A stretch of 40,064 bases of DNA, taken from the IMG/VR virus record IMGVR_UViG_3300012953_000071, positions 1 to 40,064 of that record, one strand, 5' to 3'. This document shows positions 3,143 through 34,206 of this stretch, in pieces. Made by a program: the position numbers and the translations under genes. This DNA is from a virus. Its lineage: Duplodnaviria; Caudoviricetes. Numbering within the stretch: the stretch's first letter is position 1; each line of letters begins with the position of its first letter. A model generated the notes under the pieces. It was not told where the DNA came from. It saw nothing but the letters and a program-made list of their open reading frames with translations, and searched no databases.

Positions 3143-3194
3143 AATATATTAATACTCCGAGGAGGGTTTATTTGATAGGTATCTATCGCTTTGC

Positions 3195-3214
3195 AGCGCC
3201 CCGCAAGGGGTGCT
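3195..3214. repeat. C-GCAA-G hairpin family, copy 3
   Basis: AGCGCCCC-GCAA-GGGGTGCT, with a G-T pair on the + strand. Confidence 0.8.
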
Positions 3215-3554: not shown

Positions 3555-3642
3555 AGTAGTACTGACATTAGATCAGTACGGAGTTAATATATATTATATA
3601 TAATACACTATATTTCTCCGCAGTTCAACAACTGTGTGGCTT

Positions 3643-3685
3643 TAAGAAAATTATGGGAGCCACACCAATAATGTGAGGCTCCCAT
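3643..3685 (-). terminator. terminator-like hairpin closing the 3.7-5.0 kb non-coding tract
   Basis: ATGGGAGCC...GGCTCCCAT then AATTTTCTTAA on the minus strand. Confidence 0.5.
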
Positions 3686-4807
3686 GGGGTTGCAATGTGG
3701 GATGTAAGTTTAAAAAACGTTGTCCAGCGCTGCTTTTAAGGCTATATCGTTGCCTATTCCGCTTCAGATTTTTCGCGTTTTTTATTTTTTGTGAGAAAAC
3801 GCATGGATATTGTAGAATCCCTAACTCACGAAGAGGTTTGTTATTGCGTATAACACCATACACCATATACCAAAGCTGTATATATGGGTACTTTAAGCCT
3901 ACTGTATGAGTGGTACAGTATTTTTCCTGGGGTAGCTGTACTCCAGAAGGGGGGATAGTAGTCAGAGTGTGTGCATACTCTACTACCTTTGAATTGTGTT
4001 CTCTTTTTCTTCTTGATTCTTTTAATTTTACTTAATACCTCAGTCGAAGGTATGTGTAAAGGAAGTTTTTGAAAAAGGAAAGGAGGGTGATAGCATGACC
4101 CATTGATATATATTTGGGATTGTCTATCGTTTGACTTCAACACGGATGCCCCTCAGCATCCGTATGTTACTTGGCCAGTTATTGTCCCAGCCTAAGCCTT
4201 GTCACATATACATACTACTATCCTATATCTATATATGACTTATCCTTTGTAGTTAGTATTCTAGACAGACATTACTGTGTCTTTGGTCTTTTGCCTTTAA
4301 GGGTTGGCTTCCCTAAAAGATTACTAAACGATAGTATAGCTTCATGACCTGACTATAAGCGTCACTATTGCATCGGGCATTCTCCGATTACCCTATAGGG
4401 CAGACCTAGCTTTCAGTTCATGAGAGGAGGGTTGCCGGGATTTTAGTGTTACTTTGTTCCCGACTTCAACGTTCCCTGAAAATAGAGATTTTCTTTAACG
4501 TCACAGTTATATAACTTGCCAATGTATCCTCTTTAACTTGTTTTGGCTAACATAGCTTTGATTGTAGAGGCGGGTTACTGCCTCTCTGGTGGGGTGTTAC
4601 CACCATTACGTAGCCTGCCGCCAGGCAGGCGAATCTTTCGAACTCGCCAGTTCTCAGATTCAAGAGTTTGATAGTTTACAAAAAGTTGGTTTTTTTCCAA
4701 CTATTAAATTAAAACTTTGGATTTTTGGCCGAATGCTGCAAGTAATTGTAATTGTTTAATTATTTCAGGAAGTATCTCTTTGTTTCTTCCTTAAAGCTTT
4801 CATTCAG

Positions 4808-4932
4808 CCCCCTGTCGGGGGGTTCTGTATCTTTATTTTTGTTATCTTACTCTTGGTTCCGGCATGCTTATGCCTTCCTCGACCCTCTTCTTATTCTCCC
4901 ACTCCTGGGAGAAAGTCCCCCCTGTCGGGGGG
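4808..4932. repeat. two copies of the hairpin CCCCCTGTCGGGGGG (4808..4822, 4917..4932)
   Basis: Exact 15-nt repeat that is itself an inverted repeat. Confidence 0.85.
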
Positions 4933-4955
4933 AGCCAAGTCTTCATAGACATACC

Positions 4956-4986
4956 GAGGGGAAGTCGGTCGCAAGACCGACCCCTC
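4956..4986. repeat. C-GCAA-G hairpin family, copy 4
   Basis: GTCGGTC-GCAA-GACCGAC, extended by GAGGGG/CCCCTC. Confidence 0.7.
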
Positions 4987-5869: not shown

Positions 5870-5902
5870 TGCACACCTCCTAGCTATATCTCCATTTTGG
5901 AT

Positions 5903-5951
5903 ATGGCCGCAAGGCCATTACTGTCTTGATAGAATGGGCCGCAAGGACCAT
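5903..5951. repeat. C-GCAA-G hairpin family, copies 5 and 6 in tandem
   Basis: ATGGCC-GCAA-GGCCAT (5903..5918) and ATGGGCC-GCAA-GGACCAT (5934..5951). Confidence 0.8.
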
Positions 5952-6707: not shown

Positions 6708-6796
6708 AGCTCCCTCCAAGGTTTAAGGAATACTACCATCTTGTAAGGAGTCGCCAGACTCCTTCCCAAATGACTCATTCTCCTATAGGTACAACA

Positions 6797-6885: not shown

Positions 6886-6923
6886 CCTTGGCAGAGTTCC
6901 CCAACTCCTACAACCATTTCCAA

Positions 6924-6941
6924 AGGCTCCGCAAGGAGCCT
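6924..6941. repeat. C-GCAA-G hairpin family, copy 7
   Basis: AGGCTCC-GCAA-GGAGCCT followed on + by TATTTATTTATTT. Confidence 0.8.
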
Positions 6942-7008
6942 CTGTATTTATTTATTTGTTTATTCGGTGCGGAGGTGCGGAGTATTAGCATTTAGTGGTG
7001 AGATAGTA

Positions 7009-7048
7009 CCATTAAAGAAAAGAGGGGAACCCCCGAGAGGGTTCCCCT
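7009..7048 (-). terminator. terminator plus conserved TTTAAYGG junction
   Basis: AGGGGAACCC/GGGTTCCCCT stem then TTTTCTTTAATGG. Confidence 0.8.
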
Positions 7049-7057
7049 TGACATTAA

Positions 7058-7459
7058 CTAAATAGCTATAGTCTTTTTCTTGTATGCTTCAGATCTTAGA
7101 ATCCAATCATAACCTTTGATTGGATATCGTGCACCCATGCGAGTCCACTCTCTAACTTCAAAAACATATCCATTCTTGTTTGCAAATGTACTAGCCCTTT
7201 GCCAGAACAACCTGCACAATTCCGTATTCTCTTTATAATAGATAGAACGAAAACCAAGAACACCATGTGGCATAATATAAATACTACTACACACGGCTTC
7301 AACTGCAGCAAGTCTACGCTGCTTTACCTTTGGACAGTTTGCTGGATTTCTCCAATTGAATAAAGGAGCCCAGAATTCAAAGGCAGCACCGATATGCTCT
7401 TTACTGCCTGGGATCCATACTCCAATACTCTGAAGTCGTCTTACGATTGCTTCTTCCAT
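7058..7459 (-). CDS. hypothetical protein (133 aa), co-transcribed with the RNA polymerase
   Basis: GGGAGGTG RBS; starts just after the polymerase stop and ends before a terminator. Confidence 0.8.
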   Translation of the reverse strand: MEEAIVRRLQSIGVWIPGSKEHIGAAFEFWAPLFNWRNPANCPKVKQRRLAAVEAVCSSIYIMPHGVLGFRSIYYKENTELCRLFWQRASTFANKNGYVFEVREWTRMGARYPIKGYDWILRSEAYKKKTIAI

Positions 7460-7485
7460 GATATCACCTCCCTTAGGGACGCGGG

Positions 7486-10400
7486 CTACTGCCCACGCCC
7501 CTTGTTGATCCAGTCCCGTTTCAGAGCTGAATTGATATGAGTGATTGGAGTAACGATGATCTCGTACTCGTCAGCACCCTTCTTATCTTCACACAGCTCA
7601 TCCCCGACAATGCCATTGATTACAGACATACATGTGATGCATTCAGTAAGCTTTACACCAGTTACCCTTTCGTGTTTCTTGGCTTCATGCATACAGTCGT
7701 ACATCACACCGGCAAAAGTCACAGCCTCACCATTTGCGATTCTGCTATTAAGCTGCTTCTTCACGTATCTGTGAGTAGCTTTAGCTGCATCGTCGCTCAT
7801 GAACTTGCAAGGCTCTGGCACGTCCATACCAAGTGCTTTCAGGATTGGAGATCCAGGCCAACAGATAGCTCGGAAAGCCCTATTGACCCTGGATGTCTGT
7901 TGTTGCTTCTCCTTCTTCTTGAGGTTTGGCTTGTTCGTGAAGCTAAGCTCACTAACCCAAATCATCAGCAATTCGTCGATAGACAATTTGTTGAGTCCTT
8001 GAATCAGCCTACCATAAGCAGCATCAACTCGCTTCCTCTTCTCCTCGCCTTCATATGCACCAGAGATTGTAGTTCTCATAGCACGTCCGAATGAGTTGAA
8101 TCCAGCCCTATCTCTAAGCTTGTAAAGCTCAGTACCGTCCAGAGGCTTAAGGCTGCTTACCCTCTTACCGTTAGATAAGCGAACACCCTCAGTATCTAGA
8201 GCTTTCAGCAAGACTTCACAAGCAGAAGTACTGTCTTCAGGAGCAGATCTCCAACCCAAAGCAGAGAGCTTCGAGTTAGCCATCTCAGCACAATCATTTA
8301 CGAGGTTGCCGCCATACACAGGAGGTGTATAGTTCCAAGCCTTATACATGACGCTCTTGTTTGACATTCTCCAAGGGATGAGATCTTTAAGCTTCTGCTT
8401 TCTTCCGCAATGAGATTCCCACTCCTTGCCAACCCACTCTTGAACAGCTGATGTGTCGATATGGCCAGTTTCCATAAGTCCACCCTTTCCGTCAGGAATG
8501 ACTTCGTACCAACTCTTGTCAGCCTGACACCTTTCGATATCGACTGTCCAAAAGTTAGACCCTGGGACTCTTTCTTCAGTATCTTCAGGGTTGCACTCAT
8601 ACCAGTTCTCTGGACGAATAAGCAGACTAGGATCAAGCTGAACAACAACTCGCTTAGCACTATCAATCGCAAGCTGGATCATAACAGACATGGCTAAAGC
8701 ATGCATACGCATACCCAAGCTCATGAATGCAGCACGATAGACAGTTAGAATCCCAATGGGACCGCGACCATCTATTGCGATAAGATCCAAGGCTTCTTGA
8801 TTTGGCACCTTGCGAGCAGTAATAGCCTTCATGACTGGATGCTTACAGCTCGGGCATTCATCAAGCGGGTAACGAAGCACATTCATGCCTTTGGCCTTGA
8901 TCGTAGCTCCACAGCCATTGCACAACCATGGATATTGATACATCAGGATCTTGCTGCGAACATCGTTGTCTTGAGACTTAGGCTCAATCAAGTAAGTTGC
9001 ATCAGGACCATGAGGTCTAGCTACAGACGCTTTTGCCATAGCAACAATGTCCCACCTGTCATCAACCAGGACCCTATCACCATCGTCATCACCCATAAGC
9101 CAGTGAGTAGCCATTGTGCTGTTCATGAAAACAACACGGTTGGGAGGTGCAGTATTGCCACGACCATTGCTAATAAGCATATGCTCTAATGGCTCTACAA
9201 TCTTCCCAATGACAATCATCTGAGTCTGAATGCACGGGTATCTCGTGATGAATACTTCGCTTCCAATCCTATTGTGGACCTTCCACCTTGTAATCACTAC
9301 TTTCTTCCCATCTGGAGTCAGCTTTGCTTTCGCAGGATAGTCTGGATCGAGAGTGTATCGCTCGATACATTTGCCAAGAAGATCCGCTATGTCGACTTCT
9401 CCTTCTGGAACAGCCTCTTCGAACACCTCCTTGACCTTCTCCTCACGAAGAACAACCTCCTTATCCTTAAGACCGTCATCGATAACGATAGTATAAGTTG
9501 GAGATTTGATTCCCCCACCTTGAACTACCCGATAACAAGCCTTGCCAAGCTCCATCTCGACAGATGCAGCAATAGCTGGAATCGACATTGGATCCAGGTC
9601 AAGCCGCCTGCACAGATCGACGTTGAACTTCGTCAGCATATCAGTGTCGCAGAGACGATTCAGAATTGCTTCTTCAGCACCGTCTTCTTTGAACTTCTTG
9701 ATCCACCGATCTATATGTAGTCCAATCGTTGTCCTGCTCGCAGAAGTAGCAGTCATATTCTCAATGATCTGATAGCCCCAGCTAGTTCGATCATCCTTGA
9801 ATGATTTCTGCCACTTATTGATGACTGTCATTGATCCGCTATAAGACTGGAATTCTCCAATCTTGAGAGACTTAGTCTCCTTGCGATTCTTATACCTGCC
9901 CTTAACCTGCGACTTATCCATCCAGATTGCAGGATTGCCATCGTGATCGAGAGCACGATCATCAGCTACCAGGATACCCTTGCAGAACCTTCCAGTTTCG
10001 ATCTCTATCCATCGAATTTGAATTGAACCACAATCTCCACCACTGATGCCGAGCTTATGCCAGAGCCAGTGCTTGGTATGGATAAGTCCACACCCATCAC
10101 TGCCGCGAGGTATGACTTTTCTTGAGCTTTTCTTCTTGCCCCTCGTGTAGGATGGAATCTGAGTAACCATGATCTCCACAGTTTCACAGAAGCCATTGCC
10201 TACTGCAGGAGCAGCAAGTCCACTGAGATATGCCCTCATATCAATTGCTTTCGGAAAGGCACGATTAAGAATTGGCAGCAAAGCCAAGTCAAAGGCATGC
10301 TTTCCTTTCACAATCGCAAAAGGTCTAGTCCGGGTACCCTTCCTCGGGTGCACAACGCTATTCCTAGCCTCACGCACTAGAGTCATTGGGACTTCCAGCT

Positions 10401-10914
10401 TCCCGTGATCTTCTGCAATCTCCTCATCATCCTCTGTTCGAAGATGAATCAGTGGGACTGCAACAGAAGCGCACAGTCTTTCCCATGGTGTAGGAACTCT
10501 TCCATCAATCTCCTTTCGACGACCAGAAGCAGATGCTTCTTGAATCATCATCTTTAGAAGGCCATGGATTCCAATTCCATTCTTCATTGCAATCCTTGTG
10601 TAAGGATTACTGCTGTCACCAGTCCAATGCAATGTCCACATACCGACATTACCATAGAACTTCCTCGCAGCTTGTCGAGCTTCATACTCTGTTCGCTTTT
10701 TCTGATGCCTTTCATTATCAAGCATGCGGTTTCTCTCCTCTTTGTTGTTGTTGACACTCATGGTGTCCTCCTGGTTGTTGGGGTTGTCTGCCATGCTGTA
10801 AGTCTCGCAATCCAGGCAGAATGTTTTGCAAGAGCCGTCACTCTGAACTTGAATGTCGGCAATGTTGTGACTGCCACAGTTGGGACAGCCAGGGGTTGTT
10901 GTTGGGGAACTCAT
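7486..10914 (-). CDS. single-subunit double-psi beta-barrel RNA polymerase (YonO / QDE-1 cellular RdRP-like)
   Basis: Ordered motifs SDGCGLI, IQIR...KGIL, SQVK, ITRYPC, catalytic GDDDGD, GIL...AIDSAK match the cellular RdRP/YonO signature (DGxGxI, QxR..KG, RxP, GDxDGD, AxDxxK). Confidence 0.85.
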   Translation of the reverse strand: MSSPTTTPGCPNCGSHNIADIQVQSDGSCKTFCLDCETYSMADNPNNQEDTMSVNNNKEERNRMLDNERHQKKRTEYEARQAARKFYGNVGMWTLHWTGDSSNPYTRIAMKNGIGIHGLLKMMIQEASASGRRKEIDGRVPTPWERLCASVAVPLIHLRTEDDEEIAEDHGKLEVPMTLVREARNSVVHPRKGTRTRPFAIVKGKHAFDLALLPILNRAFPKAIDMRAYLSGLAAPAVGNGFCETVEIMVTQIPSYTRGKKKSSRKVIPRGSDGCGLIHTKHWLWHKLGISGGDCGSIQIRWIEIETGRFCKGILVADDRALDHDGNPAIWMDKSQVKGRYKNRKETKSLKIGEFQSYSGSMTVINKWQKSFKDDRTSWGYQIIENMTATSASRTTIGLHIDRWIKKFKEDGAEEAILNRLCDTDMLTKFNVDLCRRLDLDPMSIPAIAASVEMELGKACYRVVQGGGIKSPTYTIVIDDGLKDKEVVLREEKVKEVFEEAVPEGEVDIADLLGKCIERYTLDPDYPAKAKLTPDGKKVVITRWKVHNRIGSEVFITRYPCIQTQMIVIGKIVEPLEHMLISNGRGNTAPPNRVVFMNSTMATHWLMGDDDGDRVLVDDRWDIVAMAKASVARPHGPDATYLIEPKSQDNDVRSKILMYQYPWLCNGCGATIKAKGMNVLRYPLDECPSCKHPVMKAITARKVPNQEALDLIAIDGRGPIGILTVYRAAFMSLGMRMHALAMSVMIQLAIDSAKRVVVQLDPSLLIRPENWYECNPEDTEERVPGSNFWTVDIERCQADKSWYEVIPDGKGGLMETGHIDTSAVQEWVGKEWESHCGRKQKLKDLIPWRMSNKSVMYKAWNYTPPVYGGNLVNDCAEMANSKLSALGWRSAPEDSTSACEVLLKALDTEGVRLSNGKRVSSLKPLDGTELYKLRDRAGFNSFGRAMRTTISGAYEGEEKRKRVDAAYGRLIQGLNKLSIDELLMIWVSELSFTNKPNLKKKEKQQQTSRVNRAFRAICWPGSPILKALGMDVPEPCKFMSDDAAKATHRYVKKQLNSRIANGEAVTFAGVMYDCMHEAKKHERVTGVKLTECITCMSVINGIVGDELCEDKKGADEYEIIVTPITHINSALKRDWINKGRGQ

Positions 10915-10991
10915 GATATTTACTCCTTAATCATGAGGTTGTGTGTAGTTTTGGATAAACGAACAAAATGGACTACACCAAACCATTTCAT

Positions 10992-11032
10992 CCGTTAAAA
11001 AAAAGAGGGAGAGGCCGTTAAGCCTCTCCCTC
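10992..11032 (-). terminator. terminator plus conserved TTTAAYGG junction
   Basis: GAGGGAGAGGC/GCCTCTCCCTC stem then TTTTTTTTAACGG. Confidence 0.85.
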
Positions 11033-11047
11033 AAACCAACAGTTTAT

Positions 11048-11299
11048 TCATCGCTTCCGAGCAAACACAGCATCAATGGCGTCGTCCATCTCCTGGTGGC
11101 ACGCAGCATCGTGGATCGCTTCCAATCCCGCCATCACTACATGTGAGGCAAAGCCGATGTTCTCCTCGTCGTCGATGGTCACATCAAGGATCTCGTCGGT
11201 CACACCTGGCAAACGCTGTGCCTTCGACTCCTTGATTACTTTGGCTTCTTGCTTCTTCTCTGTTACGTCAATAAGACGCATCATCTGGGCTATAGTCAT
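11048..11299 (-). CDS. hypothetical protein (83 aa)
   Basis: GGAGG RBS before ATG at 11299; fills the space between two terminators. Confidence 0.75.
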   Translation of the reverse strand: MTIAQMMRLIDVTEKKQEAKVIKESKAQRLPGVTDEILDVTIDDEENIGFASHVVMAGLEAIHDAACHQEMDDAIDAVFARKR

Positions 11300-11335
11300 G
11301 TTACCTCCATGACTCATGGTTGTATGGCATTAGTG

Positions 11336-11376
11336 CCGTTAAATAAAAAAGAGCCCCACCCTAAGGTGAGGCTCTT
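11336..11376 (-). terminator. terminator plus conserved TTTAAYGG junction
   Basis: Hairpin with a G-U pair on the minus strand then TTTTTTATTTAACGG. Confidence 0.85.
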
Positions 11377-11379
11377 CTT

Positions 11380-11709
11380 TTAGTTTCTGAAGTAGTTCAA
11401 CTGACTGCACTCAAGGCAAGCGACAATGTAGGTATCGCCTACCTTTTCGAAGTCTTTCACGCTGTGGTTGGGGTAATGCTCCCCACAGTGAGCGCATTCA
11501 AAGCTGACTACCTCGCCATCTATGTAAGTCAATGGATCTTCTCTTGGATCCTTTGGTGGAGTCATCGTTTGAATGACTTGGTGCCTTTTTGTCTTCTTAG
11601 CACCAACATACACTCCGCAAATCCCGCTATCATTGCCGGGCTCTCCGCAAAGTATGCTTTTACCTACAAAGTGGAACCTTTTGCTTCCTGGATGTCTATA
11701 GCACCCCAT
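11380..11709 (-). CDS. small zinc-ribbon protein
   Basis: GAGGAGG RBS; CAHC...CLEC pair near the C-terminus. Confidence 0.7.
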   Translation of the reverse strand: MGCYRHPGSKRFHFVGKSILCGEPGNDSGICGVYVGAKKTKRHQVIQTMTPPKDPREDPLTYIDGEVVSFECAHCGEHYPNHSVKDFEKVGDTYIVACLECSQLNYFRN

Positions 11710-11910: not shown

Positions 11911-11950
11911 TCGTTAAATAAAAAAGGAGGTCCCCCGAAGGGGACCTCCT
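11911..11950 (-). terminator. terminator plus conserved junction
   Basis: AGGAGGTCCCC-TTCG-GGGGACCTCCT then TTTTTATTTAACGA. Confidence 0.85.
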
Positions 11951-11980
11951 CACTAGCTGTCACACTAGCTCTCTTCTCGA

Positions 11981-13150
11981 CTACGCAGTAGCCTTCTCCA
12001 TGGATGTCTTGACTGCCTTTGCAACCAATCCACGCAGCTTCGACCAATTCTTGATCGATTCCCATTCAGGATTGAGTTCCTGAACGACTGCTGTCAGGTG
12101 AGGATCATTACCGATCATTTCCTTTAGAGTAGCGACTCCATTGGGCAGATTCAGCGCATTGCCTTCTCTCCCGCAATCTGAGTCGACAGACTGCTGCTTC
12201 AGATTGTACTCGTGGTACTTTTCCGCAACTGCCTCGTAGTGAGCATCGATCTGGAGACGAATCTCTTCCTTCTCCTTTTCGATTTCCTCTACCTCTACTA
12301 CTGTAGCTCCAACCTCATCATCGACAGGATCGACAACTTCAGTATCAGCTTCAGTCATCCGAGTCTCTTCCATGACCTTGTTGGCATTCTCCATCATAAT
12401 TGATGGAGGCAACTCAATCACAGGCTCGTTCTCGAAAGGCTCCGTCACCTTGGGATCAGCATCAAGAACATCCTGATGCATCATCTTTGGCTCTGGAACA
12501 AGTGTCGGATCCAAGTCCCGTACCACTTCAGTCAAGGTATCAAGCTTACCATTGGTCTCCTTCAAAAGCTCGATAACAATATCAAGCTTAGAAGGTCCAA
12601 AGATACGGCTTCGAAGACTTTGCTTTGGCTCTGCAAGAACTTCAGCTTTGACTTCTTCCACCTTGACTTGAGCTTTCTCAGCCTTGACCTTGACCTTAGC
12701 TTCAGAGCGCTCCTCCATGTAGCTGTCGAAAGCAATCTTCTTCAGCTCACAGAAAGACTTAAAGCCTTCCCACTTGCTTTGGATTACACTTCCAGCATCT
12801 ACAATCTTGGAGCGAACATAGCTGTAAGCACCCACTACCATGTCAATGACTGTGGTGTAAGCGAATACAATTGCATTCCATCCAATTTCAAGACCATTTA
12901 CAATAATGTCTGTGGTCCGGTAACCGACATTCCGAAGAATATCGAAGTTGTTGTTGTTGTTGCCCATTTTTTCTCCCTCCTCAGGGATTTGGGGGTTGAT
13001 GATAGCGGACCATTGCTTTTGGCGCTGATCCATCTTCCAGTTTGAGATCCAGATCATTCCGAATACGCAAGCTGAAAGGATTGAGTAAGACACAAAGACG
13101 AACCAGAATAGCTCATCTTGTGCCATGACATTAGAGATATATGTAAACAT
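11981..13150 (-). CDS. acidic coiled-coil protein with N-terminal TM segment (second in-frame start at 12967)
   Basis: AAGGAGAGG RBS at the first start; GAGGAGGG RBS at internal MGNNNNN; E/K-rich body. Confidence 0.8.
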   Translation of the reverse strand: MFTYISNVMAQDELFWFVFVSYSILSACVFGMIWISNWKMDQRQKQWSAIINPQIPEEGEKMGNNNNNFDILRNVGYRTTDIIVNGLEIGWNAIVFAYTTVIDMVVGAYSYVRSKIVDAGSVIQSKWEGFKSFCELKKIAFDSYMEERSEAKVKVKAEKAQVKVEEVKAEVLAEPKQSLRSRIFGPSKLDIVIELLKETNGKLDTLTEVVRDLDPTLVPEPKMMHQDVLDADPKVTEPFENEPVIELPPSIMMENANKVMEETRMTEADTEVVDPVDDEVGATVVEVEEIEKEKEEIRLQIDAHYEAVAEKYHEYNLKQQSVDSDCGREGNALNLPNGVATLKEMIGNDPHLTAVVQELNPEWESIKNWSKLRGLVAKAVKTSMEKATA

Positions 13151-13189
13151 ATGCCTCTCCTTCTTGTTGTTGGTTGTAGTTATTGAGGA

Positions 13190-14128
13190 TGATGTTTAAA
13201 CTCATCTCTGAGCGGACTATATTAAGGCAGAGCCAGGATCCTGTACCATCGGACCCTTTAGTTTTGTGCTCCGAAGAGCTAGACCACAGAAATAATGGCC
13301 TAAATTCAGGCTTAGTGGATACTTGTTACCTGCAAGTATCTACCCTCACGCCTGCCGAGGTGTAGTTGAAGCCATTGACCAGACCAGTCTCGTCTGATGT
13401 AGCTCTTCTCCACTACACAAGGCTCACCTAAATCTTTCGCTCATTAGGTGCGTCAGTTATCGTGTGTTGCTTTCAATATGGCAACAAGGGAGAAGATCTC
13501 CCCCTCTACTCTAGCTTTTCATTCCGGGACTGAGGAAGCCCGTGTAACGGCTTACGTTGCGTTACTTCACTTTTGTTAACCTGCTGGCAAGTAAAGCCAA
13601 CACCTTGAATCTCGTCAAGGACCCTATCAATTACAACCTTCAGGTACCGTCAGGTAATAATTGGACTATTGCTCGGATGTTCCCAACTACAACTCTTTCT
13701 CAAGAGTTAAAGCTTCGTTGAATTACACCTCTGCAAATCGTAGCACTCTTTTGGATCCCTACAGGATGGGATGCTAGTTCCCAAACGTAGAGTTCCTACA
13801 AGCAGACCAAGTACATTGCTTTAATGTAGAATCGTACCCTCAGTAGATCTCTCTATAGTAAAGTATTCTTCAATGTTGGCTTGCTTGAGTCAGAAACCAC
13901 TCTGACAAAGCCCCAGTTTTCACCAGGAGCCCATATCGCTATGAGCTGCATATATGCTCCCCCACCACAGGGGAAGCCTAGCTATCTTCCTTTCATGGGA
14001 TGCTACCCCCAATCAAGGCCGTTCACTAAGCCACGATCTTCTACGTTCAACCGTACACAGGTGCTATGCATATCGTCACACTCCGAAGAGCAATGGTAAG
14101 TAAGCACTGACGTACCTACTCTAGCACC
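13190..14128 (-). ncRNA. candidate large structured non-coding RNA (about 0.95 kb)
   Basis: No credible ORF; more than a dozen hairpins; two GCTC-TTCG-GAG tetraloop stems (13268..13279, 14080..14091); first helix GGTGCTA/TAGCACC (14128-14122 with 14066-14060) starts exactly at the junction motif. Confidence 0.6.
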
Positions 14129-14167
14129 GTTAAATAAAAAAGGAGGAGCCCTTACGGACTCCTCCTT
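14127..14167 (-). terminator. terminator plus conserved TTTAAYGG junction
   Basis: AAGGAGGAGTCC-GTAA-GGGCTCCTCCTT then TTTTATTTAACGG. Confidence 0.85.
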
Positions 14168-14189
14168 ATATACACCCATACTACTCACT

Positions 14190-14516
14190 CTACTGCAGCA
14201 ATCCTTGCTCACCATGCAGAATCTGTGTGATTGCATTGCAGTGCTGCTCTGCCTTCTCCTGATGGTTTGCCCTTTGCATGAAGCCAGGAACTGATTTCTC
14301 CTGATCCAGGCACAGGCAATACTCTTCTGCTTCCTCGTACTCTTCAGGAGTATTGTCGTAGCCTATCTCCTTGGTGATGCAGGCAGGCACACCTCCATCG
14401 CTTGGATAGAAGTTCTCATCTCTACTCACCGAGAACAATAGCACAATCAGTGCAAGTGCGAGCAGCAATACTACTCCTGCTTGCTCTGCTATCATCATCA
14501 TACGCTGTCTTTCCAT
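14190..14516 (-). CDS. membrane-anchored/exported Cys-containing protein
   Basis: AGGAGG RBS; N-terminal hydrophobic anchor; four Cys in the soluble part. Confidence 0.75.
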   Translation of the reverse strand: MERQRMMMIAEQAGVVLLLALALIVLLFSVSRDENFYPSDGGVPACITKEIGYDNTPEEYEEAEEYCLCLDQEKSVPGFMQRANHQEKAEQHCNAITQILHGEQGLLQ

Positions 14517-14531
14517 GGTAAACCTCCTATA

Positions 14532-14762
14532 TTAGTTACCATTGTTGATTGATCTATCTAGCTCCCTTAGATACAAGGGTAAGCTTAGTACAAGAACGCT
14601 CAGTGTGAGTATAAAGGGTACGTTGAATACAGAGAATGAGAGCATTACATCTACATCTGGTACTAGCATCAGTATATGCCAGCCTACATACAGACATGCA
14701 ATCTCTATAGCAACGATAGCTATATACACTAAACAGAACTCAAGCTTACTGAAGTTACTCAT
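14532..14762 (-). CDS. small membrane protein (two TM segments)
   Basis: GGAG RBS; two hydrophobic helices. Confidence 0.75.
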   Translation of the reverse strand: MSNFSKLEFCLVYIAIVAIEIACLYVGWHILMLVPDVDVMLSFSVFNVPFILTLSVLVLSLPLYLRELDRSINNGN

Positions 14763-14789
14763 AACAACTCCATAGTTGTGGCCTAATTG

Positions 14790-14835
14790 CCATTAAATAA
14801 AAAGAAAGGAACCCTGTGTTACCAGGGCTCCTCTC
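14790..14835 (-). terminator. terminator plus conserved TTTAAYGG junction
   Basis: GAGAGGAGCCCTG...CAGGGTTCCTTTC then TTTTTATTTAATGG. Confidence 0.8.
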
Positions 14836-14860
14836 TACTGAGCTGCTTCTATCCCTTGCC

Positions 14861-15265
14861 TTATGAGCTAAGCTTTGCTCCATAGTGCAGTACTCCCTTG
14901 TACAGCACGTATGCAACTACGACTACAGGGCCTGTGCACCACAATCTTGTATCACTATAGATGACCATAAGCGGTACTCCAGACAGTACAACTGCGAATA
15001 TCGATACAATCTTCCATACACCTCTAACTCCCTTCCCTCTTCTCCACCGTCTCTCATGTTGGCCACGGATAACCCTTCCATTCCAAGTCTTGTTGCTCTT
15101 CTCCAGGAAGATCCACTTCAGTAGATCAACCAATGCCTCTGCATATATATTGATCATGTTGATTGTTCTTGTCCAGTCGAGCAGCATCCACTTCAGTATT
15201 AGAAGTAGTGACATGATGAAGTTGGGGTTTCCTGCTCTCTTCTCTTTCTTGAGTGATACACTCAT
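14861..15265 (-). CDS. basic membrane protein, first gene of the left arm
   Basis: AAGGAGGT RBS; hydrophobic segments with an Arg/Trp-rich loop. Confidence 0.75.
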   Translation of the reverse strand: MSVSLKKEKRAGNPNFIMSLLLILKWMLLDWTRTINMINIYAEALVDLLKWIFLEKSNKTWNGRVIRGQHERRWRRGKGVRGVWKIVSIFAVVLSGVPLMVIYSDTRLWCTGPVVVVAYVLYKGVLHYGAKLSS

Positions 15266-15704
15266 GATTACCTCCTTAGGTAATTATTGGTTGTAGTAGA
15301 ACTAATGATCACTAGTATCGGACCCAGGTGGGCTCGAAACGGATAATCACTAATTCCACTAAAAAAATAATAGGTGTAACTACAATATATTTTTTATTTC
15401 CCCATAATAGAACTTAGATTTTGGCCTCTTTTCGCATCTTCGCCCCCTATTGTTTTTGAAAAATTTTTATTTTCCAGAAATCCACCCTCAATAAGGCGAC
15501 CCGCCACCCCTTTATTCAAATCTCTATAGAGACAAATACTTTTCTCCCCTTGCTTCTCTCCTTACTAAATGATACTCTTTTCAAAGTATTTTTTTAATTT
15601 TCGCTCTTTATACATGCGATATTTTTAATTTTAAGATATACTCCTCCTATGGGAGTATCTTTTTACCTTGGCTGAGGACGACGCCAACCTCTATTGGAGT
15701 ATGA
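15266..15704. promoter_or_regulatory. divergent intergenic control region
   Basis: Strand switch between the two arms; many T/A tracts; hairpin GATATACTCC..GGGAGTATC near 15636-15660. No promoter could be pinned down. Confidence 0.5.
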
Positions 15705-15995: not shown

Positions 15996-16266
15996 CGGCA
16001 CTTATGAAGGTACTCGCTTAGTCCACCTTGAGACTGGAGAGCATTTAGCTAACTGTGCCGGCTTAGTCTTGAGTTTAGATGGCAGGCAGCGTGTGACTGG
16101 TGCAAAAGTGTACCTAGCTGCCTGCCCAGTCGAACTTGAAGCTACAGTTAGGCATGTAGCCGGGGGAGACATTGGGAGCGATCCTATCCCCGTTGACGAT
16201 CCTTTTAACGTAATATATTTAGACAGGTATTTAAAAGAAGATGAGCACGAAGAAGAAAGACTCTGA
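15964..16266 (+). CDS. hypothetical protein
   Basis: GGAG RBS; overlaps both neighbours. Confidence 0.7.
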   Translation: MIDSKIKIVSDGTYEGTRLVHLETGEHLANCAGLVLSLDGRQRVTGAKVYLAACPVELEATVRHVAGGDIGSDPIPVDDPFNVIYLDRYLKEDEHEEERL

Positions 16267-17041
16267 TATTGAAGCAAAAGTAGGACTTTCGCTTGTTCCC
16301 AGTAAGGAGCAAGCTATTGAAAAACTTACGGAGATAGAGCCCGAGTACGAAAGCTACCTTGAAAAATTACCAGCGAAAAAACGTCAAAGAATAGTTAACT
16401 CGCTGAACAGGATTCGTACCGGGCTCCATTCCATTGCTCCAATGATGTGTCTAGGCCCTTCAAAATGTCCAATAGTAGACAGATGCCCTATCCCTGAAAG
16501 GGACGAAGATGGTAAGGTGGAGTTCGGTCCTGAGAGAAATTACCCGATGGGTAGAGAATGTGTTTTAGAGAAGTTTTATATGCAGCAAAAAATGATCGAA
16601 TATGTAGAACACTTGGGAGTAGACCCCTCTAATCCGGTTGAGATGTCAATAGTCAATGAGCTTTCGCTCATTGATCTTTATAAGAATCGTGCACTAATGA
16701 TTATGGCTGTTGGAGACCAGAGCGGCCAAGGTCGAGATTTCATGAGGGTAGATGTGATAGGCTTTAACGAGAATGGGGAAACAGCTGAAACTGCAAAATT
16801 GCATCCAGCCGTAGACATGATCGATAAATTAGAAAAACGCCGCGAAAAATGGCTCGAAAAACTTATGGAGACAAGAAAATCAAAAGCGGACTGGGCTGCG
16901 AAAATGGGCAACTTTGGGGGAGAAAGTAAGATTTTGGGCGAAATTCAAAAATTACGCGAAGCGATTTCTATCATAGACTCTGGCACGGAACTACAAATAG
17001 AAGAGCTTGAGGAAGAAGAAATACTACTGTCGGATGATTAA
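16241..17041 (+). CDS. putative terminase small subunit
   Basis: Position upstream of TerL; Cys cluster then a helical region with KLHPAV...LMETRKSK, reminiscent of P27-type TerS. Function is inference. Confidence 0.45.
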   Translation: MSTKKKDSDIEAKVGLSLVPSKEQAIEKLTEIEPEYESYLEKLPAKKRQRIVNSLNRIRTGLHSIAPMMCLGPSKCPIVDRCPIPERDEDGKVEFGPERNYPMGRECVLEKFYMQQKMIEYVEHLGVDPSNPVEMSIVNELSLIDLYKNRALMIMAVGDQSGQGRDFMRVDVIGFNENGETAETAKLHPAVDMIDKLEKRREKWLEKLMETRKSKADWAAKMGNFGGESKILGEIQKLREAISIIDSGTELQIEELEEEEILLSDD

Positions 17042-20000
17042 TGAGTGAAATAATCAGAAAAAACCTGGATCGACTTTTTGCCAGCGCGCTTGATCTCGAC
17101 GTAGAGACTTGGGGCCTTGGTCGAGGCTCAGGTATGCATGAAGTTGCTATTTCTGGTAAAGGTGCAGTACTCGGAAAAGAAGGCTATGGTGTAAGACAGT
17201 GGAGACTAGATCCCAACTTAACAACCGTAGAATCGCCCGCAAAACAAAATCTTTACAAATTGGCAAGCTCCGCAAGCGACAAGCATTCCCCAAGTGTAGC
17301 TTTAGAGCAGCTCAAGAGAACGCCAGGTTACACCCCTAAATGGACTGATGTAGACAAAATTCACACAGCGATAATGCGTGATTACGAAAATACTCAGCTA
17401 TTTGATTCTAAAAGCGGTGTTACACCAATTGCTGGAGATGCAAGAAAAGTCTCAGCCCTAACTAATAAAGAGACCTTAGACTTTTTAAGAACTAACAATA
17501 ACTTTCGGTTTACCTCCTATGAGCAACAAAAATACTGGTGGATGACTTATATAGATCCAGTTACCCATGAAGTTACGAACCCCTTCCACAAAGGGCTTGG
17601 AATTCCTGGCGGGCCTAACATGCCGGATGATCAGGCTGCTAGAATAATTAGACACGAGTTAGAAGCTCAAGGTGTGGAAGCACATCGAATGCAGCATATA
17701 CGGTCTACTCGTGGCGCTATCGATTCCCTGGTAGGCAGAGAGTCTGAGTTTGCAAGAACTATAAGAAATAAAACGCTTTGGATTGCAAGCGCTCACTTCG
17801 AAGCAAAACAGTTCGGTGCTGCTATAGCTGTTGAAGAAGAGGCAGTTAAGCAGCGATTGATGCGTCAAGGCCATACCGAAGTTGACGCTATAAAGAAAGC
17901 TAAGCAGAGCACTGTTAGGGCAGGTATGTCTTGGCAGAATCCTGGCAGTCCAGACGTATTCAATGTAAACGATCCAATATATACTAGAACTCGATCAATG
18001 GCCCAAAGAGGCGTTGCAGGTGTTGACTTCACAGACGTTTATAAGACAATGCATCTTGAAACAAGGCTTCCAGGCACTCATGTCAGAGATGTATTCGACC
18101 TTGTTAAAGCTGAACAAGACTTTGCAAGAAAGCTGAATATTATAAATCTGCCCAAAGGTCAGTACATACCAGGTGGTATTGATGTTCTTTCAAGGCTTCA
18201 TAGAGCTGGAGATTATAAAGGTCATCAAGCTGTAAAAGCATTTTCAATCGCAGAAACTCATACAGCTTATTCCGATACAACTTCTTCTCAGCACCTAGTT
18301 AGAACTCGAACAGCTAGAAGCATTGAGGTTATGAAACAAGTTGCTGAGAATACTCACCTTGGAAAAGAATATGTTTTGCAAGCGAAAGCTGGCAAAGGCC
18401 CACTGCTAGATATATATACAAGACTGAATAGACAACAAGCTATTGCTAACTTTAAGAGCCCCGGAAGTGTTGTTAGTCAAATCGATAGAGCTATAAGGGA
18501 TATCTCTTTGCAAGGTTTTAGTAGGCAGTCTGCTGGCAGTAAAGAAATATTTCCTACCCAAGAGTCAATATCTGGAAGGAGAACGAGAGTCAGCACTAGC
18601 GTTCCATCTACTAGAGAAGTTTCAAGTATTGCTGATGCAGTTGAGGCAATTGGAGCAAGACATGGTGATAGGGATCTAGTTACCAGAGAGTGGGATGCTA
18701 TGAGAAGGCATCTTGTAGGTACGGGCTCTTTGGGTCCAGAAGGCATGCCAATAAAGGGTCAAGAAAGAGCTTTAATTGCTCACTCTCAAGCCTATATGAT
18801 GGACTCTGTCTCCAAGCATGATGTTGATGCTTTTGCTAGGAAGATGCAAACTGAAGGTGATCTATCCAAGTGGCTTAGCAGCACAAGAGCTACCAGATCT
18901 TCAGCCTCACAACTTAGAAGTATAAGAGAAGGCGCAGGGAATATATTCAAAGGTAAAGCTGGCAGGGTTGGCGGTGCGGCAGGTGCACTATATATGGGTG
19001 TTGCTGGACTTGGCATGCTTACAGCAGTTATGGAAGGTCCTAAAAGAAATAGAACTCCTGCATCGATTTTAAGTGTAAACTATAAAAACTGGTTAGAGAA
19101 TCAAGAAGATTTCCACGGCATGGAAGCCCCTCCCTCTCAGAATGAGTATGGTTGGCAATCTGGCATGCAGAAGCGAGGCGTTGGTGCAGCAAGTAGAAGG
19201 CTTAATACTGACTTTGGATCCCCTTATCAAGGCCCAATGGCAGCGAATGGAGTTCTTTATGACCAGCAAATCCTTGCAGAAAGAGAAAAGTATTTAAGAG
19301 AAGTTTACCAAAGAATTCACAATGATCCTGCCTCACAGGATATCTTCAATTATTTCAAGATAAGCGCAGCCACAAGCATTGGCCACCACTACGTTAAAGG
19401 TAGCGATGTCGAGCATGCAGATTCACTTATGTATCCCTCATTAAGGGGTGAGAATTTATTAAGAATAAATCTCAGCAAAGGGAACTGGAAGGTAACGGCA
19501 GAAGATGCAGATACTATAACTATTAGACGTGGAGGCTTCAAAGGTAGTGTAAGTGACTTTTTTGGCCAAAATCAAAGCTATAGTTTTCGATTGGCTGGTA
19601 TCGATGCACCGGAAACAATGCATGGCGAGATAGGAATGAGAAGAGCACAGCCTCATGCAGATGATGCTACGAAAGCTCTACAAGCCATGATAGGCAAATC
19701 TGGTAAACTAGATATAGTCTATGACCCATCCAATGTAACCTATGGTCGTATGGTTGGTGCGTTGATGGTTGATGGTAAGAATGCTAACTTCGAATTGCTA
19801 AGACAGGGTCATGCGGCTTTGCTGCCTTTCTATAAAGAAGGTACAAAGCCAATGGTTGACTATGAAGCAATGAGGAAGATTGAATCTAGAGCTAGGAATA
19901 GCGAAAGAGGAATGTGGTCTGAGCCTTTCTTCCAAGCCTATGCAGACATTACTGCAGGTGGCGACAGGATTACATTCAATACATTTTCAAGAGTTAGTGA

Positions 20001-20493
20001 AACTGCAAAGAATGCTACTACTATGAGCGCAAGAGCGCTTATGTGGAATGCCCAAGATATGGGTTTCTACAATACTGCTACGCATGGTGCTCAAGCTCAA
20101 GCGCTGAACACCCTCTTAAAAGAAAGAGGTCGTGAAGACGACTATGGCAGACCCTCTACATTCAATTGGACTGCTACACCTCATAATAGTTATATGGCTG
20201 AAATGATGAGAGATAGTGCAGAATTGATGAAGACTAGAGGTACGGCAAGTTCGTATAGAACTAGTAGACGCTCTGGCTACGGCTCTCTGGATAAAAAATT
20301 AGTTCTAGATTCAATGAGTAGTACGAATATATGGAACAAGAGACGCCACCCAGTATACGATGTATATAATGTGAAGAATGGAAGAAATAGTAGATTTAGA
20401 GATGCTTATAAGCATAAAGTTGCAATGGCTGAAAGCCAACGCTTAGCTATGGCTAGCATGATGATGAGTTCACAGAACCATCACGTAATGTAG
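17041..20493 (+). CDS. large protein with N-terminal DEDDh exonuclease-like region and C-terminal staphylococcal nuclease (SNase) domain
   Basis: SNase: DADTI, RLAGIDAPE, YGRMVG, NFELLRQGHA, ARNSERGMWS. DEDDh-like: LDVETWGL, SAHFE, HTAYSD. Confidence 0.75.
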   Translation: MSEIIRKNLDRLFASALDLDVETWGLGRGSGMHEVAISGKGAVLGKEGYGVRQWRLDPNLTTVESPAKQNLYKLASSASDKHSPSVALEQLKRTPGYTPKWTDVDKIHTAIMRDYENTQLFDSKSGVTPIAGDARKVSALTNKETLDFLRTNNNFRFTSYEQQKYWWMTYIDPVTHEVTNPFHKGLGIPGGPNMPDDQAARIIRHELEAQGVEAHRMQHIRSTRGAIDSLVGRESEFARTIRNKTLWIASAHFEAKQFGAAIAVEEEAVKQRLMRQGHTEVDAIKKAKQSTVRAGMSWQNPGSPDVFNVNDPIYTRTRSMAQRGVAGVDFTDVYKTMHLETRLPGTHVRDVFDLVKAEQDFARKLNIINLPKGQYIPGGIDVLSRLHRAGDYKGHQAVKAFSIAETHTAYSDTTSSQHLVRTRTARSIEVMKQVAENTHLGKEYVLQAKAGKGPLLDIYTRLNRQQAIANFKSPGSVVSQIDRAIRDISLQGFSRQSAGSKEIFPTQESISGRRTRVSTSVPSTREVSSIADAVEAIGARHGDRDLVTREWDAMRRHLVGTGSLGPEGMPIKGQERALIAHSQAYMMDSVSKHDVDAFARKMQTEGDLSKWLSSTRATRSSASQLRSIREGAGNIFKGKAGRVGGAAGALYMGVAGLGMLTAVMEGPKRNRTPASILSVNYKNWLENQEDFHGMEAPPSQNEYGWQSGMQKRGVGAASRRLNTDFGSPYQGPMAANGVLYDQQILAEREKYLREVYQRIHNDPASQDIFNYFKISAATSIGHHYVKGSDVEHADSLMYPSLRGENLLRINLSKGNWKVTAEDADTITIRRGGFKGSVSDFFGQNQSYSFRLAGIDAPETMHGEIGMRRAQPHADDATKALQAMIGKSGKLDIVYDPSNVTYGRMVGALMVDGKNANFELLRQGHAALLPFYKEGTKPMVDYEAMRKIESRARNSERGMWSEPFFQAYADITAGGDRITFNTFSRVSETAKNATTMSARALMWNAQDMGFYNTATHGAQAQALNTLLKERGREDDYGRPSTFNWTATPHNSYMAEMMRDSAELMKTRGTASSYRTSRRSGYGSLDKKLVLDSMSSTNIWNKRRHPVYDVYNVKNGRNSRFRDAYKHKVAMAESQRLAMASMMMSSQNHHVM

Positions 20494-32901: not shown

Positions 32902-34206
32902 ATGAGTATAAAATTATCTGATGGTCAAGAACTGGCATTACCTTCAAATGAGGATTCAGCTGCTCGCTATGTAGCAGACATGTTCCTCAATAGAGGTCAC
33001 CTGCCAGATAGCGACCAAAGAGTCTCTTGGAAGAGTTTTGCAGAAACAATCTCTCCCAAGAATACAGACTTAGTCCGTTCATCCGAAATCACTCCATTGC
33101 TTGCAAAAGCAACTGAGATTCTGATTCGCGAACCTGTAGAGGCTGAAGCAGTCGTTACAGGTCTCTATAACAGAGTTCAGTCACAGGGGTTAAACACACA
33201 AATTCTTGCCGGTGCTATGGGTGCCGTCTATGCTCAAGATATTCAAGAGCATGGTACATATCCTGAAGTTAACTTCCAGATCGGTGGTGCAGTCAGCACT
33301 GCTTGGATCGGGAAGTGTGGTATTGCAGCTGCATTTACCGACGAAGCACTTCGTTATTCCACATGGGATATCATGGCTATGAACCTTAAGCTTATGGGAC
33401 AAGCTCTTGTTCGTCATAAGGAGCAAAAGGCTGTCGCTTTCTTGAAAGCACTAGGCACAACTCTTTTCGACAATGTGACTCCTAGCGATTCTCTTTACGG
33501 CTCAATGAGCGGTAGAGATCTTGAGATGACCCCCAATGGTTCCCTTGCTATGGAAGATCTTATGAGGGGTATGGCACATATGTCAGAGGAAGGCTTCTCT
33601 CCAGACGTCCTCCTTATGCATCCTCTTTTCTATTATTCTTTCCTTCAGGACCCAGTGCTAAGAGCAATGATGCTCGCTCACGGCGGTGGTTCTTACTTCA
33701 ATCCATATACCGGAAACCCAGGACCTCAAAATCCTTGGGCTAATGGAGCTATGGGTGGAATGGGTCCGTCTGCTGGCCATGCTATCACTCCTGGTGGTGC
33801 TCCTTCTGGAGAATCCGCAACAGGACTTGCTGGTCGCAGTGTAAGAGCAAGCTCTGCTCCACAAGTACCATCATACTTCCCATTCAACTTAAGGGTAGTC
33901 GTATCACCTCTTCTCCCATATGATGTTGAGACTAATACTGGTGATGTATTCCTGCTTTCAAGCGGAAACGTCGGCTACTACCTTGTGGATGAAGAGCCCA
34001 ACACTGTCGAGTGGCGTGATGAAAGCGTCGAAGTTGTTAAGGTTAAGATTCGTGAACGTTACGGCTTTGCTGTTGCTCACGAAGGTCAGGGCGTTGGCGT
34101 CTTTAAGAACGTCAAGGTTGCTGCTAACCGTTGGGACGGTACAGTTACTGCTGCACCTGCTACCATTACGGAGCATACAGCAAGCGATGCCATTGCCGAT
34201 CTATAA
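32902..34206 (+). CDS. major capsid protein (HK97 fold)
   Basis: EHGTYPE, K.GIAAAFTDEALRYS.WD, ALVRHKEQK, PDVLLMHP and KIRERYG motifs; followed by a strong terminator. Confidence 0.88.
   Translation: MSIKLSDGQELALPSNEDSAARYVADMFLNRGHLPDSDQRVSWKSFAETISPKNTDLVRSSEITPLLAKATEILIREPVEAEAVVTGLYNRVQSQGLNTQILAGAMGAVYAQDIQEHGTYPEVNFQIGGAVSTAWIGKCGIAAAFTDEALRYSTWDIMAMNLKLMGQALVRHKEQKAVAFLKALGTTLFDNVTPSDSLYGSMSGRDLEMTPNGSLAMEDLMRGMAHMSEEGFSPDVLLMHPLFYYSFLQDPVLRAMMLAHGGGSYFNPYTGNPGPQNPWANGAMGGMGPSAGHAITPGGAPSGESATGLAGRSVRASSAPQVPSYFPFNLRVVVSPLLPYDVETNTGDVFLLSSGNVGYYLVDEEPNTVEWRDESVEVVKVKIRERYGFAVAHEGQGVGVFKNVKVAANRWDGTVTAAPATITEHTASDAIADL

Follow-up and report, generated by a model that had tools for sequence, protein, structure and literature searches.

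A predicted QDE-1-type phage RNA polymerase flanked by two classes of putative promoter elements: a possible transcription relay

Introduction

Single-chain RNA polymerases with a two-barrel fold are encoded by several phages, and how such enzymes find promoters without a sigma factor is an open question. According to PMC10770324, Thermus phage P23-45 encodes a non-virion RNA polymerase (nvRNAP; gp64, or gp62 in P74-26) and a virion RNA polymerase (vRNAP; gp96) of this fold (PDB entries 8F72 and 8F5M); the nvRNAP gene lies in a pre-early block, and each of the two enzymes has its own promoter motif, assigned by co-location. This is a precedent for a relay. Here we analyse a 40,064-base fragment of phage DNA (IMG/VR record IMGVR_UViG_3300012953_000071; hereafter the window), in which the minus-strand gene at 7486–10914 encodes a 1142-residue protein predicted from its modelled fold and conserved motifs to be a single-chain two-barrel RNA polymerase. 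Two motif classes, termed class I and class II below, also occur in the window and its relatives, with the gene of the putative nvRNAP inside one of the zones. Compared with P23-45, the proteins of the window family are longer (about 1000–1140 residues against 617), structurally nearer to QDE-1 and equipped with a C-terminal Cys/His/Cys/Cys site, and the virion candidate is a gene of about 1700 codons placed, in relatives, in a cluster of giant genes. On balance we lean slightly towards a two-step relay in which a virion polymerase reads class I and expresses the window polymerase, which then reads class II.

YonO of SPbeta is likewise phage-encoded and a single chain, and shares the DxDGD loop and a DGxG motif; it transcribes late genes, and its promoter is left undefined in the report (PMC5467207). 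We found no C-TN(N)C-G hairpin of at least 4 bp in the yonO–yonK interval. The vRNAP of phage N4, a T7-like, virion-packed enzyme, has promoters that are described (PMC4496689) as short inverted repeats whose loop, of 3 nt, is centred at −11 and whose extrusion depends on supercoiling and on single-stranded DNA-binding protein (SSB); their C-G-closed G..A loop on the template strand and fixed distance to the start have putative counterparts in class II. Here, by contrast, the enzyme is of the two-barrel kind, loops are of 4 nt (of 3 nt in some relatives) and a GG follows 13–15 nt past the closing G. Geometry of the N4 type is present in the window and some relatives and absent from G002, G004, L010 and L011, all start sites being putative. 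PeSL cassettes of T4-like phages are reportedly read by the host polymerase. They resemble class I in being composite terminator/promoter units between variable small genes (PMC4122927), whereas the window lacks a sigma-70 consensus. For Bacillus phage 0305phi8-36, PMC2147016 describes a polymerase akin to RNA-dependent RNA polymerases (gp99) with 21-bp promoter candidates, monocistronic leading genes and a proposed polymerase switch, and the capsid protein of this phage is 27% identical to that of the window. In contrast, the accessible part of that paper describes no hairpin geometry, and neither the window polymerase (P0001) nor P0008 gives a tblastn match to 50,697 phage records.

The polymerase family considered here numbers about 100 full-length clusters, and its concrete promoter candidates are lineage-specific and can be tested with short oligonucleotides. 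A two-barrel enzyme that reads hairpins, if confirmed, would represent convergence with N4 and have implications for the origin of the polymerases of RNA interference from DNA-dependent phage enzymes.

Fold and family of the polymerase

An AlphaFold2 model built from 67 sequences (of 149 proteins) has a mean predicted local distance difference test score (pLDDT) of 86.6 and a predicted template-modelling score (pTM) of 0.86. The top Foldseek matches are QDE-1 (E = 2.6e-10), RDR2, gp62/gp64 and phi14:2 gp66, followed by cellular polymerases. Structure alignment (VIA) gave Z scores of 20.1 with RDR2 (604 residues aligned, root-mean-square deviation 7.9), 18.9 with QDE-1 (542 aligned, deviation 4.8, model residues 83–891) and 15.6 with gp64 (443 aligned, deviation 4.2), the two-barrel fold being judged from these alignments and not by viewing coordinates. 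QDE-1 and RDR2 (PF05183) are the best fold matches, yet share only 12–14% identity with the window polymerase. The protein combines a two-barrel fold in one chain with a DxDGD triad preceded by RxP, both marks of the QDE-1-type clade, and on the strength of the predicted model is almost certainly of that fold, as a preliminary description made from the DNA sequence had proposed.

The motifs on which that description relied are all present and in order in the translated gene: SDGCG at residues 272–276, IQIR at 298–301, KGIL at 312–315, RYPC at 558–561, GDDDGD at 608–613 and AIDSAK at 749–754; KGIL follows IQIR by ten residues, not by two. The catalytic loop D609-D-D611-G-D613 is encoded at 9076–9090 and R558-x-P560, in the catalytic barrel, at 9235–9243 (both on the minus strand). 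Among 100 aligned members, on which all motif counts rest, the three aspartates, P560, K312, K338, Q747, D751 and K754 are invariant, and R558 is present in 99. A DDDGD loop had been thought unusual; it proves to be the family norm, the middle residue being Asp in 90 of the 100 members, and YonO, taken from the SPbeta record, has DNDGD. The lysines K312 and K338 lie in the second barrel and, judging from PMC7824862, would have a catalytic role.

The cysteine sets deserve comment. C1036, H1081, C1092 and C1095, near the C-terminus (7630–7809, minus strand), are conserved family-wide, in 100, 96, 99 and 99 of the 100 members respectively, and likely form a zinc site. The CxxC..CxxC insert that had been noted after the active site exists (C665–C690; 8845–8922, minus strand) and is private to the window polymerase (one of 100 members), with pLDDT below 50 across most of residues 665–686; it is not supported as a feature of a wider system. 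A second private CxxC..CxxC lies in residues 1–47, also at pLDDT below 50. A possible second start, M52 (10761, minus strand), has its own AGGAGG, in a context resembling that of the gene at 15265 (repeat D2), and the gene may make two forms, with and without the N-terminal CxxC pair.

A phmmer search of 1.84 billion representatives returned 148 matches, 113 of them at E = 1e-10 or better. The ESM Atlas neighbours of the polymerase are phage PF05183 clusters (score 0.93); the window protein does not reach the gathering cut-off of Pfam PF05183, which was matched by three of the 38 family members tested, one of them above the cut-off. There was no meaningful match to the window polymerase in Pfam, PHROGs, NCBIfam or PDB sequences and none in the 50,697 phage records; a word-indexed search returned only the query itself, or three proteins when a profile was used, and a metagenome scan only the window's own contig. 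Searches of open-access text listed no paper that deals with this family or with an enzyme of this kind using hairpin promoters; the 23 family alignments of PMC10770324 may nevertheless include the family. The kinship with YonO that had been proposed is not supported beyond the fold: similarity was not significant by hhalign (probability 1.8%, E = 0.027) or BLASTP (E = 0.17), with YonO entered as a single sequence, for which a deep profile might find more. The family profile comparison with the P23-45-type nvRNAP gave E = 0.021. On these grounds we consider the polymerase to belong to a distinct family of a known kind. It is very probably DNA-dependent, by analogy with the characterised phage enzymes of the same fold, which are reported to use DNA (YonO, PMC5467207; gp64 and gp96, PMC10770324). 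Three family members, P0080, P0094 and P0026, are 1470–2566 residues long, and in P0080 the polymerase match begins past residue 1600; these are possible fusions.

Class I elements ahead of the polymerase gene

The polymerase open reading frame (ORF) lies inside a leftward, minus-strand arm of small genes, to which all window coordinates in this section and the next refer. The repeated junction motifs and hairpins of the preliminary description are real: the junction motif TTTTWTTTAAYGG has six matches in the window at up to one mismatch, all on the minus strand, against 0.38 expected. It is part of what we call class I, a GC-rich hairpin followed by a T-tract and RYGG. The arm's first copy (15356–15369) is a core of T-tract and GTGG without a hairpin. 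It is followed by a terminator hairpin with T-tract and ATGG (14790–14836), a copy with ACGG directly before a long ORF-free stretch (14127–14167), a variant with ACGA (11911–11951) and two further ACGG copies (11336–11380 and 10992–11032), the last of them 82 nt upstream of the polymerase start codon. One ATGG copy lies one gene beyond the polymerase (7009–7048).

Family members are encoded at 14 viral loci, of which the near-duplicates L002, L004, L008 and L014 were excluded from counts. Within 6.5 kb before the polymerase gene, the coding strand carries 2–12 class I copies in 11 of 11 loci, compared with 0.1–0.4 in shuffled sequences, and ten relatives have none or one downstream of the gene. 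The pattern was drawn from these 11 loci themselves; three loci fetched afterwards hold eight, eight and two copies.

A strand-neutral search gave 47 stems from 85 sites, in which the coding strand shows 35 G-T mismatches against three A-C, with UUCG the commonest loop. Because of this bias we conclude that the class I hairpins are RNA terminators; the alternative that they are template hairpins of the N4 type is ruled out by the same counts. In the window, as in G001 and G005, the arm begins with a copy that lacks the hairpin, whereas the corresponding copy in G002 and G003 has one; the T-tract–RYGG unit is thus separable from the hairpin, which fits a start signal. A 5' hairpin after the class I GG is seen at 65 of 85 sites against 61% in shuffles, a weak excess. 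Marine metagenomes from other studies hold strains about 92–98% identical to the window over long pieces, and six of the 11 listed joints between strains have their end at an element that is class I or resembles it, with the neighbouring gene swapped or diverged, a pattern also reported for PeSLs (PMC4122927); two of these joints recur.

A single-copy motif at the start of the arm (15323–15338) sits between divergent modules and is a candidate genome end, packaging site or polymerase-loading site. A similar motif was picked by eye among matches with up to four mismatches in nine of the 12 loci scanned, and a stricter pattern did not find it in L081–L083.

Class II hairpins behind the polymerase gene

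The second repeated element, with the core CCTTGCGG, occurs six times against 0.64 expected, always on the minus (coding) strand and downstream of the polymerase gene. It belongs to class II, a short C-TNNC-G hairpin with a GG about 15 nt further on, which is the geometry of a hairpin promoter. In the window the copy at 6914–6941 has a C-TTGC-G loop, ATGG at an offset of 13–16 from the closing G and an AT-rich box upstream. A C-TGGC-G hairpin with ATGG is found at 6736–6764, and two C-TTGC-G hairpins at 5892–5950; ATGG follows at the fixed offset for the hairpin that closes at 5913, and not for the one that closes at 5945. Then come C-TTGC-G with TCGG (4954–4981) and C-TGGC-G with ATGG before the second ORF-free stretch (4603–4630). 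Of three further C-TTGC-G hairpins, those at 3186–3214 and 211–237 lack GG at the fixed offset, and that at 2194–2222 has TGA where the GG is expected. Five of the seven perfect stems in the window fit the spacing.

Among early-strand C-TNNC-G hairpins with stems of at least 5 bp, 28 of 75 have a GG exactly 15 nt past the closing G; on the opposite strand the figure is four of 60, and with other loops it is 33 of 565. The stems of these 28 vary from 5 to 11 bp, so that the ruler appears to be the loop. The class II proportion is higher downstream than upstream of the polymerase gene (57 of 169 against 10 of 103), and the position of the elements on the early strand makes a late role of the polymerase less likely. 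Each relative has a fixed loop of its own, be it TTAC, TGAC, TCAC or the triloop TTC. On the template strand the loops read C-GNNA-G (C-GCAA-G or C-GCCA-G in the window), and GNNA is described as a stable type of DNA mini-hairpin loop (PMC13037366). AATAAAT stands before class II hairpins of the window and likewise of G001 and L082; as a second promoter in its own right it was rejected, being non-specific genome-wide.

A different hairpin, with a C-run, GA(C/T)A and a G-run, occurs 2–5 kb behind the polymerase gene, often in pairs and at several loci near an ORF-free gap (window 4813–4825 and 4919–4932; L001 12703, 12750 and 17168; also L006, L007, L010, L012, L081 and L082). By eye it has no GG at promoter spacing on either strand; it is possibly an origin or an RNA element.

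A second candidate polymerase in the virion module

All five complete relatives encode a virion-module protein of about 1700 residues, and in G001 and G002 its gene sits among three giant late-module genes. Among its homologues, which are about 21–59% identical to the first, 12 of 12 share RxP and DxDxD without variation. The protein gave no Foldseek match at E = 0.001, no profile match to the window polymerase family, nothing in PDB sequences or phage records and Atlas scores below 0.9. It is likely the virion polymerase, as an unproven candidate. Its presence outside the window speaks against the term 'self-contained' that had been applied to the system. Three homologues, L068 (2935 residues), L069 (2494 residues) and L067, have long insertions between RxP and DxDxD.

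A proposed relay and its alternatives

From the fold of the model, the conservation of motifs and the strand, zone and spacing of the two element classes we infer activity, a DNA template, start sites and the pairing of enzymes with elements. In the first step the virion enzyme would transcribe the short pre-early arm as small units from T-tract–RYGG, each class I element joining the terminator of one gene to the start of the next, with one element directly before the polymerase gene. The new polymerase, the second and non-virion enzyme of the relay and likely DNA-dependent, would then recognise short inverted repeats with a lineage-specific loop (C-TTGC-G or C-TGGC-G in the window), initiate at a GG whose distance from the loop is constant and does not depend on stem length, and drive the early and replication arm. 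Since relatives that encode the enzyme also have motifs of both classes, the earlier suggestion of a system of enzyme and cis-elements is supported; the proposed noncoding RNAs, which have no homologue in relatives, are not supported as part of it. More tentatively, and with somewhat less than even confidence in the whole, we envisage a clade of marine phages of myovirus size (132–192 kb) with a relay of two undescribed two-barrel polymerases, in which a QDE-1-like enzyme would read extruded DNA mini-hairpins, the virion enzyme would read T-tract promoters fused to terminators that double as gene swap points, and one unit would make a structured RNA of about 1 kb.

Several observations weigh against the relay. 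The loci are kin to one another and the counts from them are not independent; 12 of the 28 exact class II cases come from a single locus, and there are none in G002, G004, L010, L011 and L013. A preset class II rule was satisfied by only two of 36 hairpins at the three new loci, and the better figure for offsets of 13–15 (17 of 22, against a background of 15%) came from a widening made after that failure. G002 and G004 have other loops, some with a stable GNA loop on the coding strand and, by eye, a similar spacing followed by TGA, so that a template-strand hairpin is not universal. Eleven of the 28 class II GGs begin GGAG, and the window itself has five class I-like sites downstream of the polymerase gene. 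The model of the 1700-residue protein is poor (pTM 0.34), the segment before its RxP gives weak matches to polymerase clamps (four entries, Z 5.0–6.2) below the trust level of the tool, and its gene is known only from relatives, the 40-kb fragment ending before the expected place. Starts and activities are predictions throughout.

Among the alternatives, the one that fares best has the window polymerase reading both classes, or class I only, with the host polymerase making the first transcripts and the virion protein being no polymerase. We consider it unlikely. It draws on the similar YGG at the end of both classes, on the downstream class I-like sites and on the unproven fold of the virion protein. 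However, in eight of 11 loci a class I site precedes the polymerase ORF by no more than 160 nt, and in two more it falls just within an ORF that is over-long, so that expression of the polymerase would require the polymerase itself. The number of sigma-70-like sites is at chance (33 against 33.3 expected), and the invariance of RxP and DxDxD in the virion proteins also speaks against this reading.

A little less probable still is that class II elements act in RNA, where they would process long transcripts, stabilise 5' ends or terminate weakly, and that the promoter of the polymerase is something else. The spacing is tied to the loop and not to the end of the stem, most of the hairpins lack a U-tract, and TNNC on the coding strand is GNNA, the stable DNA mini-hairpin type, on the template strand (PMC13037366); all three speak against this reading. 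Location at gene junctions, the coding-strand GNA loops of some lineages and unbiased mismatches in the downstream stems (five G-T against four A-C) would suit an RNA signal, as would the GGAG cases; 17 of the 28 GGs are not Shine–Dalgarno-like.

An exchange of roles, with the virion enzyme reading class II and the window polymerase class I, would follow N4, whose vRNAP promoters are the sole established hairpin promoters (PMC4496689). We regard it as improbable, since the polymerase gene is preceded by class I and followed by class II, and under the exchange the polymerase could not be expressed first. Very improbable is an RNA-dependent polymerase copying the large RNAs of the phage: its closest structural matches are QDE-1 and RDR2, polymerases of RNA interference, and both ORF-free stretches begin at start signals, but YonO is reported to prefer DNA templates strongly (PMC5467207), seven of 12 relatives have no ORF-free gap of at least 450 nt in the pre-polymerase arm, and the folding z-scores described below barely exceed those of coding controls.

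ORF-free stretches

The large noncoding RNAs suggested by the preliminary description correspond to genuine ORF-free stretches of 852 and 910 nt on the coding strand; their identity as noncoding RNAs was not borne out by Rfam 15 covariance models, which gave no match at the gathering score and E-value matches at chance level only. The first (13160–14128, minus strand), whose start coincides with a class I GG, is free of long ORFs and folds at z = −8.0 over 13170–14128; it is a candidate structured RNA, as yet unproven. The second, an ORF-poor stretch (3600–4606, minus strand), starts at a class II GG and is an equally unproven candidate RNA or origin region (z = −4.9 for 3900–4610). Coding controls fold at z = −4.8 to −7.2 in four of ten windows. 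Among the loci and phages searched with blastn and nhmmer, the first stretch has no homologue and the second no convincing one. Five of the 12 relatives have an ORF-free gap of at least 450 nt before the polymerase, none resembling that of the window. We found nothing in support of the RNA copying that had been suggested.

One strain contig differs from the window at 39 of 1718 nt over 12453–14170, compared with 263 of 4436 over 6940–11375; 14491–15540 is also nearly identical (five differences in 1050 nt), so the low divergence may reflect mosaicism. In two oligo-dT RNA runs from one study, the arm and with it the polymerase gene is covered by short contigs of low depth, and 13129–14222 by none, contigs of this kind being able to show neither transcription nor its absence. 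The candidate RNAs may be real, and are not conserved parts of the system.

Genomic setting

Five relative records are 99–100% complete, at 132–192 kb. The family was also found on four contigs of metagenome-assembled genomes assigned to four different phyla; these are probably mis-binned phage, and no host is therefore inferred. Rightward from 15.7 kb the window encodes a nuclease-domain protein, terminase, portal and capsid. A gene of this side (16241–17041, plus strand) encodes an unnamed 266-residue protein with a Cys cluster and no family match; it is the best-conserved neighbour (45–70% identity) and is matched at 12 of the 14 loci, on the strand opposite to the polymerase as in the window. 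Next, ahead of the terminase, is a 1150-residue protein with a staphylococcal-nuclease domain (17041–20493, plus strand), kept across the clade. The capsid protein (32902–34206, plus strand) has its nearest annotated counterparts in Acinetobacter phage ME3 (31%) and Bacillus phage 0305phi8-36 (27%). In the relative G001, genes for a Lon-like protease and for a class II ribonucleotide reductase with an intein lie in locus L017 (41437–59329), and locus L018, which follows it, encodes a piece of DNA polymerase III alpha with an intein match.

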